The notes under the pieces are model-generated. The model saw only the letters and a program-made list of their open reading frames with translations, ran no database searches and was not told where the DNA came from. This document shows positions 17,801 to 24,505 of a DNA stretch of 26,020 nucleotides, one piece after another. Both the position numbers and the translations under genes were made by a program. Every line of letters begins with the position of its first letter. The stretch's first letter is position 1. The DNA comes from an uncultured Eubacteriales bacterium (GTDB lineage Bacteria > Bacillota_I > Bacilli_A > RF39 > UBA660): positions 1 to 26,020 of the forward strand of contig OMQW01000052.1 in the NCBI GenBank assembly GCA_900313345.1, read 5' to 3'.

Positions 17801-20800
17801 AAATTACTTGATATTAGTGATAGATATCCATTAATTACTAATAAGAAAGTAAATGATGTTAAAGAAGGATTAGTATCTGTTACTTATAATCATTTAAGTG
17901 TTAGAAAACTTTATAGTTTTGATAATAAAACTTGGAAAGATTATGATGGTAATATTATAGTTTCATTAGGAGAAACTTTATATGTAAAAGGTATTGATAA
18001 AGATGGAAATGATACTGACACTGTTATATATAAGATGGAAAAAGAAAAAGATGTATTGCAACCTGCTGCTTTTGATAATGATAGTGATACTAAAGTAAAT
18101 GCTAATTTACAAAAAGCATATATTTCAGAATCTATGCTTGGTGGAATATTAGATATTTATAATTTAAAAACTGGTTATGTAAGATTCTTTGATGAAAATA
18201 ATAAACAAATTAGTCAAGTTAATACAGTTATTGGATGGACTAAAGTAGGAGTTCCTACAAATGCTAAATATTTAGCTATTACTGGAACAGAATTATATGA
18301 AGTTGATCCTATTAAAATAGATAATAATGATTATCCAATTATTACAGAAAGTAATAAAGGTAAATGGGATTATACAAAAACTGTAGCAATTGATTATAAA
18401 GATAGTGACAATAAATATGTTCATGAATATAGTTTAGATAGTGTTAACTGGGATATTTATACTGAACCATTTATAGTTAATGATCAAGTAACAGTATATG
18501 CTAGAGAAACATTAGATGGTGCTTTAGTTTCATCAAGTAGTAAGGAATTACATTATATAGATAATACAGTTCCTACTATTGATTTAGATGATATTCCTGA
18601 TACATTTACTGAGGGTAGTAATTATCCAATGCCTAGTCATTTTGATTATGGTGAAGGTAAATCAGGTGGAAGTTATTCATGTTATATAGATGGAGTTTTA
18701 TCTGATAATGCTGCTGATGCTGATGATGGTGAAAGATTATTATCTTGTGAAATAAAGACAAATGATTTACAAGAATATAAAATTTCAAAGACAGTATTTG
18801 TTAAAGATAATCTTGAAAAATTTATTGTAACTGGTGATGTTCAAAAGTTCATTGCTCCTAAAGATGGTATTTATAAAGTTGAACTTTGGGGTGCCCAAGG
18901 TGGAACTGGTATGCAAGATAGTAGACTTATTAATAAAGGTGGAACTGGTGCTTATACTTCTGGTAATATTTCAATGAAAAAAGGAGAATCATTCTTCGTT
19001 TATGTAGGAGGAAGAGGATCTGATGGTCGTACTCAAGGCTGGTGCGTTGGTGGACATGGTGGATTTAACGGTGGTGCTCAAGGCGGAAATGATTATAACT
19101 GCGATGGAAATCCTGATGAAGGAGGCGGTGGCGGTGGTGCTACTGATATTCGTTTAGTTGATGGCGCTTTTGATAATTCTATTTCACTTGCTTCACGTAT
19201 TATGGTTGCCGCAGGTGGTGGTGGAGGAAATTATTCTGCTACTGGTGCAAATGGTGGTGCTTTGAGTGGAGATAGAGATGCTTCTGCTTCAGGACTTTCT
19301 ACACAAACTTCTGGTTATAAATTTGGTATTGGACAAGTTGGAGGTGATCAAACTGATGGTTCTGGAGGTGGTGGCGGTGGCTACTACGGAGGTACTGCTT
19401 ATCAAGGTTATGAACATGGAGGTAATGGTGGTTCATCATTTATATCTGGACATTTAGGTTCAGTTGCTATTAGTTCAGAAACTAACCTTAGTCCTAGAAT
19501 TGATTCTGAAGGTAACATTTGTCAAAATGGTTCTAAAGATATTCGTTGTTCTTACCATTATTCTAATTATATATTTACTAATACTGTTATGCATTCAGGT
19601 AGTGAAGAAATTCCTACTCATAATGGTGTTAGCACTCAAACTGGTAATACTGGGGATGGTTTTGCTAAAATAACTTTTGTTAAAGATTTAGATACACCTA
19701 TTATTAGATATAATAGAGATGAAAATTTATTAACAGAAAAAGGTGTTAAAGAAGCTAAAAAAACTGAAGTAAATATTCTTTATCCAGATAATACTTTAGG
19801 AAAATATAGTTTAGATAATAAGGAATGGTTAGATTATACTGATAAAGTAAAAGTTAATAATGGAAATACAATTTATGCTAAAGCTATTTACTTTGATAAT
19901 AGTGAAAGTAGTGTTGTTAGTTTAAATATTGAAAACTTTTTTGATACTATTAGTAGTAAAGCTTTTGATAATAATGATTCTACTAGTATAGATGTTAATA
20001 AATCTAGATTAAATTTAGATAGTTCTATATTAGGCGAAAGAATTGAATTAAAAGGTGATGGTAAAATATCTATTAAATTCTATGATAGTAATAATGCTGA
20101 AATAACTGATTATTCTAAAGAATTTAATAATGAGACTTATAATGAAGTTTTAGTTCCTCTTAATGCAGTTTATTTAATAGTTGATGGTGATAAATTAAGT
20201 GAAATTAGACCTAAATATCAACCTACTTTAGATCAATATGATAATAATGATTTATATCCAATTATTAATGGTAAAAAAGTTAATGAAGTAGATGAAATAA
20301 AAGTTCATATAACTTATAATCATCTAAGTGTTCAAAAACTTTATAGTACTGATAAAGAAAATTGGAAAGAGTATGATGGAAATTATGCAATAGTTAACTA
20401 TGGTGATACTTTATATGCTAAAGGTATAGATAAAGCTGGTAATGAAACTAAGATAGTTTCTATTAAACCAGAAAAAGCTAAAGATGCTCTTGATAGTTTA
20501 ACTTTTGATAACGATTCAGATACTAAGGCTGATATAAAAAATCAAAGATTAAATATTGGACATAAGTTACAAGGATCAACTATTGATATATATAATTTAA
20601 CACCTAGTGTTATAAAAGAAATGGATGAAAGTAATAAACTATTAGCAACATATAATACTGTTGTTGGTTGGGATAAGATAAATATTAATGAAAATACAAG
20701 CTTTATAATTATTACTGGAACTGAAGTTCACGAAATTAAAGGTGAAGGTAATATTTATGTTGAATATCCAAGAATTGTAGAATCTGATAATTCAAAATGG

Positions 20801-24505: not shown

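Follow-up and report, generated by a model that had tools for sequence, protein, structure and literature searches.

The glycine-rich domain of family PF12810 forms the ligand-binding region of the human receptors ALK and LTK. In the cyanophage Pam3, the solved fibre tip formed by gp24 combines TNF-like domains with glycine-rich ones and resembles PDB structure 7LIR (PMC9608196). The authors of that study assigned receptor recognition to variable distal loops carried on a conserved glycine scaffold, in a fibre that is a trimer (PMC9608196). Here we describe a giant bacterial protein with three domains of this kind. It is encoded in a window (the whole stretch of DNA analyzed, 26,020 nucleotides) from an uncultured Eubacteriales bacterium (GTDB RF39; UBA660), assembly GCA_900313345.1, contig OMQW01000052.1, forward strand, with a G+C content of ~25% throughout. 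Taken together, the evidence makes it probable that this protein is an adhesin fibre, anchored at its N-terminus and carrying three diverged binding heads. We infer this function from the position of the domain in its proteins, from its fusion partners and phage relatives, and from the variability of its loops.

Three glycine-rich domains in one giant protein

The giant gene, its membrane anchor and the three domains lie in the window as follows.

11873..24505, + strand: giant surface-protein gene, a single open reading frame (ORF) of 4,210 aa (ORF list and translation)
11981..12040, + strand (aa ~37-56): N-terminal transmembrane anchor, IIAIIVLILLLFFLLIFNVG, read directly from the sequence
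18818..19681, + strand (aa 2316-2603): glycine-rich domain 1 (PF12810, 166.9 bits, E = 1.1e-48, profile positions 6-242 of 243)
21269..22129, + strand (aa 3133-3419): glycine-rich domain 2 (PF12810, 178.8 bits, E = 2.4e-52)
23699..24502, + strand (aa 3943-4210): glycine-rich domain 3 (PF12810, 126.8 bits, E = 1.8e-36, profile positions 6-243 of 243)

A sequence-only reading of this DNA had placed three related segments at ~810-aa intervals on an N-terminally anchored protein, with the last copy at its extreme C-terminal tip. This layout was borne out. The segments lie in frame in one ORF, their starts are 817 and 810 aa apart, domain 3 ends at the stop codon, and the N-terminus consists of a charged segment of 36 aa ending in RRKK, followed by one hydrophobic helix. 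An identical protein was found in the NCBI and ENA collections, encoded on a contig of 26,021 nt. We presume that the protein is oriented in the membrane so that it is exposed at the surface. The prepilin cleavage/methylation motif (G|FTLIE) is not present at the N-terminus, and Pfam scans gave no PF07963 match. No C-terminal sorting signal was seen on reading the sequence of the protein, which terminates at the last glycine-rich domain.

All three segments match nearly the full profile of PF12810 (current name ALK_LTK_GRD; length 243), scoring 126.8-178.8 bits against a gathering cutoff of 24.5 bits. With E-values from 1e-36 to 2e-52 these matches are far beyond chance, and it is nearly certain that the segments belong to this ALK/LTK glycine-rich domain family, as had been proposed from the letters. 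A Pfam scan of the whole protein gave only PF12810 and a sub-threshold CHB_HEX_C match, with no kinase, EGF-like, MAM or LDLa domain. Since neither a kinase nor an EGF-like domain was found, the giant protein is not an ALK/LTK-type receptor.

We also considered that the segments might be no real domain but low-complexity glycine tracts, a repeat of the RTX, collagen or PE-PGRS type, or an assembly artefact. Glycine makes up 21-24% of the three segments versus 5.5% of the rest of the giant protein, and one long-read assembly (L001; ENA ERZ4902786, a 44.8-kb contig) splits the ORF into pieces of 1,680, 2,429 and 190 aa. However, that assembly also splits lon and other genes, so the breaks are likely to be frameshift errors of long-read sequencing, and independent short-read assemblies, at 99.8% identity, contain the ORF unbroken. 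Independent assemblies also reproduce the 3' 4-9 kb of the gene (5.4 kb and 9.2 kb) at 99.4-99.8% identity, which rules out an assembly artefact. As for low complexity, the PF12810 matches are near full length, no other family was matched even at E<=1, no tandem repeats were found in the DNA of the three segments, and the predicted structure of one of them is ordered, at pLDDT 97. The earlier exclusion of RTX, collagen and PE-PGRS repeats is thus upheld, and we regard the absence of a genuine domain as refuted. One of the L001 fragments of the giant ORF also serves as a protein cluster representative (P0125).

A single motif series had been read into all three copies, and this holds for copies 1 and 2 only with one substitution and for copy 3 only in part. 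Copies 1 and 2 are 49.5% identical, while copy 3 is 34% identical to copy 1 and 41% to copy 2. The ordered series WGAxGG, GG.NGGG, GGGGAT, AAGGGG, GGGGYYGG, GGSSFIS and GxGxxxI is complete in copies 1 and 2 and degenerate in copy 3. The latter keeps F.YTG, WGA.GG and GG[FY]NGG among the 12 motif patterns tested, most others being degenerate, and lacks the stretch that holds the C..CSYHY cysteine pair. In copy 1, FIVTGD stands in place of F.YTG. The same order of glycine-run motifs is found in the consensus of an alignment of 76 homologous bacterial sequences, in which near-invariant glycine motifs are interleaved with variable, indel-prone loops. A single-sequence phmmer search with copy 1 gave no match among the PDB sequences, so that a profile was required: the one built from the 76 homologues matched SCD-2 of C. 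elegans (7LIR, E = 6.7e-11), human ALK (~1e-8) and LTK (1.4e-5).

Among the three domains, copy 2 was chosen for structure prediction with AlphaFold2, using the 76-sequence alignment, and gave a model with a pLDDT of 97.1 and a pTM of 0.94. Beta-strands are found at the N- and C-terminal ends of the model. DSSP assigns hardly any helix or strand to residues ~128-215, where the mean pLDDT per ten-residue block is 86-99; this pattern fits polyglycine-II helices and would be consistent with a hexagonal lattice of them. The predicted fold joins a TNF-like beta-sandwich to a glycine-rich subdomain. The structural kinship to ALK and LTK that the sequence-only reading anticipated was recovered by Foldseek: of the 50 PDB matches listed, the top 21 are all ALK/LTK TNF-like/glycine-rich structures with probability 1.0, the best being 7NX1 (E = 1.1e-9). 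Next came the tail tip of mycobacteriophage Bxb1 (E = 2.6e-3) and the fibre of cyanophage Pam3 (7YPX_A, E = 5.9e-2).

Compared with ALK, LTK and SCD-2 (7NX1, 7MZY, 7LS0, 7LIR), the window domains belong to the same Pfam family over nearly its full length, keep the motif order and would likewise be extracellular on a membrane-anchored protein. They differ in that identity is only 14-19%, with TM scores of 0.45-0.47, and in that the window protein has three copies per chain at its C-terminal end, whereas the domain adjoins the membrane in ALK and LTK. The bacterial motifs ATD[IV]R and SRIM have no counterpart at the aligned positions of ALK, and the HYS/Cys-pair loop is also of bacterial type, the ALK alignment stopping before that region. 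These comparisons bear on host-cytokine mimicry, in which the bacterial domains would act as an ALK/LTK decoy for ALKAL-type ligands. Only the shared fold and family speak for it. Mimicry is very unlikely because identity is so low and because the family is abundant in rumen, rabbit, chicken and environmental metagenome-assembled genomes (MAGs) and in cyanophages, where ALKAL is irrelevant; in most habitats of the bacterial family the ligand cannot be ALKAL. In addition, the Pfam scan gave no sign of the EGF-like domain that in ALK comes after the glycine-rich one.

Display of the domain in bacteria and phages

We estimated how common the domain is by searching 1.84 billion representative proteins (50%-identity cluster representatives) exhaustively with a profile. 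This search gave 11,861 proteins at E<=1e-3, of which 2,550 also reached E<=1e-30; the cluster of the window protein itself ranked 21st. When copy number was surveyed among these homologues, as the sequence-only reading had suggested, each of the best 150 of the 11,861 carried 2-12 copies, and the longest of these proteins measured 7,663 aa. A giant protein with three copies is therefore typical of the family, and the arrangement is not the rarity it had been taken for, multi-copy giants being frequent. A single-query search with copy 2, in which 8,000 candidates were scored, gave 2,236 proteins at E<=1e-5. Most of its best matches were single-domain proteins of 300-500 aa, and the prepilin N-terminal domain PF07963 was present in 20 of the 120 best. 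Finally, species-representative genomes were scanned and yielded at least 426 relatives, of which the best 80 listed were the basis of a survey of loci. These 80 are mostly gut and rumen MAGs of uncultured Bacilli, Tenericutes, Erysipelotrichaceae, Muribaculaceae and Segatella. Overall, PF12810 relatives occur in rumen, rabbit, chicken and environmental MAGs as well as in cyanophages.

By architecture, the window protein comes nearest to multi-copy giants from other uncultured gut Bacilli (L017, L010, L083; P0135-P0157). These are between 2,000 and over 7,000 aa long; a beta-sandwich stalk separates their copies and, as in the window protein, the N-terminus bears a hydrophobic anchor. They differ in having up to 9-12 copies rather than three, spaced ~300-500 aa apart rather than ~815 aa. 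At least nine copies each are found in L017 and L010, in ORFs that exceed both ends of their 12.9-kb loci, at least eight in L083, and five each in L069 and L021. The single-domain prepilin (PF07963), lipoprotein and signal-anchor proteins present the same head at their C-terminal tip, but are 300-500 aa long, with one copy and another display scaffold. Among homologues, the domain is thus seen on lipoprotein, signal-anchor/transmembrane and pilin N-termini and on giant stalks.

A further ORF of the window, of 724 aa (3205-5379), touches on this exchange of scaffolds. Its N-terminal module consists of a signal-anchor ending in ...GFTYAAFNF and a beta-rich module, and its first ~200 aa are 39% identical to the N-terminus of a protein (L020) that shares this module and ends in a glycine-rich domain. 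A common display module therefore bears different heads, and heads are exchanged on such modules. The N-terminal motif of the 724-aa ORF may resemble signal peptides of the SipW/TasA type.

Of the 89 related bacterial ORFs with a known 3' end, 80 have their last domain ending no more than 2 aa from the C-terminus, and likewise the window protein. This position is relevant to the idea that the glycine-rich domains serve in structure or self-association, acting as rigid spacers or in oligomerisation, fibre bundling or matrix formation via the TNF-like sandwich. Several observations agree with such a role: TNF-like domains classically oligomerise, the Pam3 gp24 fibre is trimeric (PMC9608196), some copies in L083, L009 and L031 stand in direct tandem with no stalk between them, like a building block, and two of the three window copies are internal. 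However, neither the C-terminal position nor the fusion to pilin and lipoprotein display scaffolds would be expected of a spacer, and the hypervariability of the loops, together with the strain-level exchange of an insert described below, favours an interaction surface under diversification. We therefore consider a structural role unlikely, though it is the main rival, and a binding function the better account of where the domain is displayed.

Phage proteins provide the other major comparison. In BFVD, 84 predicted viral structures match at E<=1e-3. Gut-phage proteins lead the ranking (TM 0.69-0.74, 28-31% identity), and virion structural proteins of cyanophages come after them. The phage tips (Pam3 gp24, 7YPX; Bxb1, 9D93; the gut-phage models of BFVD) have in common with the window protein a glycine-rich domain that sits at a fibre's distal tip and a conserved glycine scaffold with variable loops. 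These phage fibres are, however, trimers that have helical docking domains and a chaperone of their own, whereas the window protein is a single-chain cellular protein with a transmembrane N-terminus and a chromosomal locus. The T4-like gp38 adhesin of phage S16 (6F45) also carries variable receptor-binding loops on a glycine-rich strand lattice (PMC9608196). It is supported by a different domain, which is a beta-helix and not a TNF-like sandwich; Pfam revealed no relationship, and 6F45 was absent among the 50 Foldseek PDB matches listed for copy 2. In role, the window protein seems to resemble most the tips of phage fibres and the single-domain proteins with pilin fusions.

With such relatives, the heads might engage microbes or phages and not an animal host, whether in co-aggregation, in contact-dependent interaction or as a phage-related decoy or shield. 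The closest structural matches outside bacteria are indeed gut-phage proteins (28-31% identity, TM ~0.7), and the exchange of loop inserts resembles the mosaic evolution of phage tail fibres. Yet no toxin, immunity or phage genes adjoin the giant gene, and its chromosomal locus has the same neighbours across species. We judge this alternative improbable; it would in any case be a variant of the adhesin model with another target, not a separate mechanism.

Some further members of the family are worth recording. UniProt lists phage proteins with the domain, such as A0A8S5URB1 and A0A8S5SE10 among the BFVD matches, under 'receptor protein-tyrosine kinase' or 'PE-PGRS family protein'; such names look like automatic carry-over from the domain and not evidence of a kinase. 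In Prevotellaceae/Segatella, six loci (L077, L061, L055, L039, L051, L062) hold tandem arrays of paralogous glycine-rich-domain genes, with seven adjoining lipoprotein-type genes in L077, and Segatella albensis has many genes of ~250-300 aa beginning with VQTFTAP. Such arrays give the impression of a surface-protein family that has expanded and may be variable. A group of ~310-aa homologues (P0083, P0106, P0073, P0097, P0105, P0059) has the opposite topology, with no N-terminal signal and a hydrophobic C-terminal tail past the domain; these may be eukaryotic, parabasalid-like members.

Stalk, headless orthologues and genomic setting

The remainder of the giant protein is a stalk, and the following features were identified in it and in domain 3.

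12377..12562, + strand (aa 169-230): OmpL47-type / bacterial Ig-like beta-sandwich (NCBIfam NF047446, 87.6 bits versus a cutoff of 40)
17240..19681, + strand (aa ~1790-2603): super-repeat A (self-BLAST), with beta-sandwich units, an Ig-like Cys-pair domain and glycine-rich domain 1
19682..22129, + strand (aa 2604-3419): super-repeat B (self-BLAST, 38-50% identity to A and C)
22130..24502, + strand (aa 3420-4210): super-repeat C (self-BLAST)
23903..23926, + strand (aa 4011-4018): strain-polymorphic loop of domain 3, GSQTALDG (blastn and translation of L001 and L006)

By self-BLAST, the distal part of the protein is built of three super-repeats of ~815 aa that are 38-50% identical, each ending in one glycine-rich domain. 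In the motif map, the first part of a super-repeat holds two pairs of a YSxD-type sandwich and an 'AFDNN' sandwich, followed by a third YSxD-type sandwich. The remainder comprises an Ig-like domain with a cysteine pair ('DNTVPTI...') and then the glycine-rich domain. The OmpL47-type domain, where sub-threshold Big_13 and fn3 matches also fall, is the sole stalk domain that passes a curated threshold; ten stalk pieces scanned against Pfam gave only sub-threshold Ig-like, CHB_HEX_C or Fn3-associated matches. Because a word-indexed search of 5.8 billion sequences with aa 2604-3132 gave only 3 matches, the stalk is unclassifiable by homology, and by this measure the stalk of the window protein appears to be almost an orphan. 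In a model of one stalk unit (aa 2793-2982, pLDDT 85.8) the chain forms two beta-sandwiches, which weakly resemble carbohydrate-binding modules, F-type lectins and pieces of giant adhesins (best E = 1.7e-4). As these matches are only marginal, we do not claim a glycan-binding stalk.

In related species, giant proteins (L088 3121-10044; L089-L092) align to aa 18-2273 of the window protein at ~33% identity, and in L088 and L089 the gene order is the same as in the window: the gene for pyruvate:ferredoxin oxidoreductase (PFOR), the giant gene, then a small partner gene. The domain profile found no match in these same-position orthologues (L088-L092), which stop before copy 1. Thus, the glycine-rich heads appear to have been added in the window lineage, and the simplest reading is that the Ig-like domain immediately ahead of copy 1 was the end of the ancestral giant.

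The heads also vary between strains. In L001 (9180-9419) and L006 (1-190), the GSQTALDG loop of domain 3 is replaced by a 240-nt insert encoding 80 aa with four cysteines, and two further contigs break at the same site (window 23903-23926). A 90%-identical insert occupies the equivalent loop in the last domain of a different, five-copy protein (L021, ORF aa 2158-2237), where the flanking domain sequence is far less alike (~38% identity by BLASTP over aa 3896-4010, before the insert), conservation of the upstream stretch in the alignment being visibly much lower. This suggests, on sequence grounds, that the insert has been exchanged between genes. No Pfam family was matched by the 80-aa insert.

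Three features flank the giant gene.

11815..11843, + strand: sigma-70-like promoter candidate, TTGATA-17 nt-TATAAT (consensus match only, 11/12 plus an extended -10 TG)
24507..24920, + strand: operon partner, 137 aa, with one N-terminal transmembrane helix (ORF list)
24926..24955, + strand: intrinsic-terminator-like hairpin and T-run (terminator scan, 3 sites versus 0.1 expected from shuffles)

An AGAGGTG ribosome-binding site lies ~7 nt upstream of the ATG of the giant gene, and the partner gene starts one base past its stop codon. From promoter candidate to terminator, the two genes read as a two-gene operon. The partner gene was found on 18 contigs, with the giant gene upstream in all eight of the loci shown (8/8), and its homologues in related species adjoin giant orthologues without a glycine-rich domain as well; it is therefore not tied to the domain. 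The same observation rejects a role as domain-specific chaperone by analogy with Pam3 gp25. Scans of profile libraries gave no family match for the 137-aa protein, which might be an anchoring or export partner.

The neighbouring genes are a miaB fragment, a YlbF/YmcA-like gene, cotE, rpsP, cdsA, rseP and PFOR. As these are housekeeping genes, the locus is chromosomal, and together with the gene order conserved across species they rule out a prophage or mobile origin. The miaB fragment, the YlbF/YmcA-like gene (PF06133) and cotE (PF10628, E = 8e-36) lie at 215-1702 of the window, in an order that we take to be that of ymcB-ymcA-cotE in B. subtilis. The presence of cotE hints at a spore-forming Firmicute, even though G+C is ~25% and related MAGs bear 'Tenericutes-like' labels. 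In L001, an insertion sequence (IS) element (rve integrase and HTH_21; 10492-11576) directly follows the operon terminator; it is absent from the window. A 265-aa ORF (window 1740-2537) has a weak DUF6273 match, and its C-terminal ~70 aa recur in the 724-aa ORF (32% identity, E = 9e-6) as a segment ending in a YGVRPVI-type motif. The products of both ORFs are probably secreted or surface proteins.

A proposed adhesin fibre with diverged heads

We propose that the giant gene of the chromosomal two-gene operon specifies a fibre-like surface protein whose one N-terminal helix holds it in the membrane. From there a chain of beta-sandwich domains of ~2,250 aa would extend outward, with the distal 2,400 aa formed by the three diverged ~815-aa modules, each ending in its ALK/LTK-type domain. 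The conserved glycine-run motifs would provide the rigid scaffold of the binding heads, and the variable loops between them would carry specificity. With three heads and variable loops, the protein would therefore be an adhesin with three different binding surfaces, the last of them at the extreme tip. We infer that the heads joined an older, headless giant stalk protein in this lineage and that the stalk-plus-head module was then duplicated. The relatives of known role agree with a binding function, in that all bind ligands: ALK and LTK a cytokine, while the tip of Pam3 gp24 has been assigned to receptor recognition. The preference of the sequence-only reading for a binding head over a linker is likewise in line with the comparative evidence. 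The ligand that we envisage could equally be found among host glycans or proteins, or on other microbes.

Several points weigh against this proposal. Copies 1 and 2 are internal and would therefore have to project sideways from the stalk, and loop variability can reflect relaxed constraint instead of specificity. The superposition of copy 2 on ALK/LTK reaches a TM of only 0.45-0.47, at an RMSD of 8-9 A, and its match to the solved Pam3 fibre is weak (E = 0.059, probability 0.18). Moreover, searches of the literature accessible to us for a function of bacterial PF12810 members returned nothing relevant, and no published experiment on any of them was found there. Nonetheless, we retain an N-terminally anchored adhesin as the probable role of the window protein.

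The window protein is not a new kind of system. It joins a large, known family of bacteria and phages, with relatives among more than 10,000 50%-identity cluster representatives and with its closest genome matches in gut and rumen bacteria. Most of what is known of the ALK/LTK glycine-rich domain comes from two human receptors; the window presents it as what would be a modular head on a bacterial surface fibre. It also offers a concrete system in which to ask about the ligand, comprising three diverged heads, domain-less orthologues as a built-in control and a loop with two alleles; since headless orthologues and the loop-insert polymorphism exist, the binding hypothesis is testable. More speculatively, and with rather less confidence than we place in the adhesin itself, giant fibres and pilins tipped with this domain might constitute a major unrecognised class of adhesins in uncultured gut and rumen Bacilli and Bacteroidales, with specificity evolving as in phage receptor-binding proteins and the animal ALK/LTK domain as one offshoot. 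If so, specificity in these bacteria would evolve by the addition of head modules to older stalks, by the duplication and divergence of heads, and by the exchange of loop inserts between genes.

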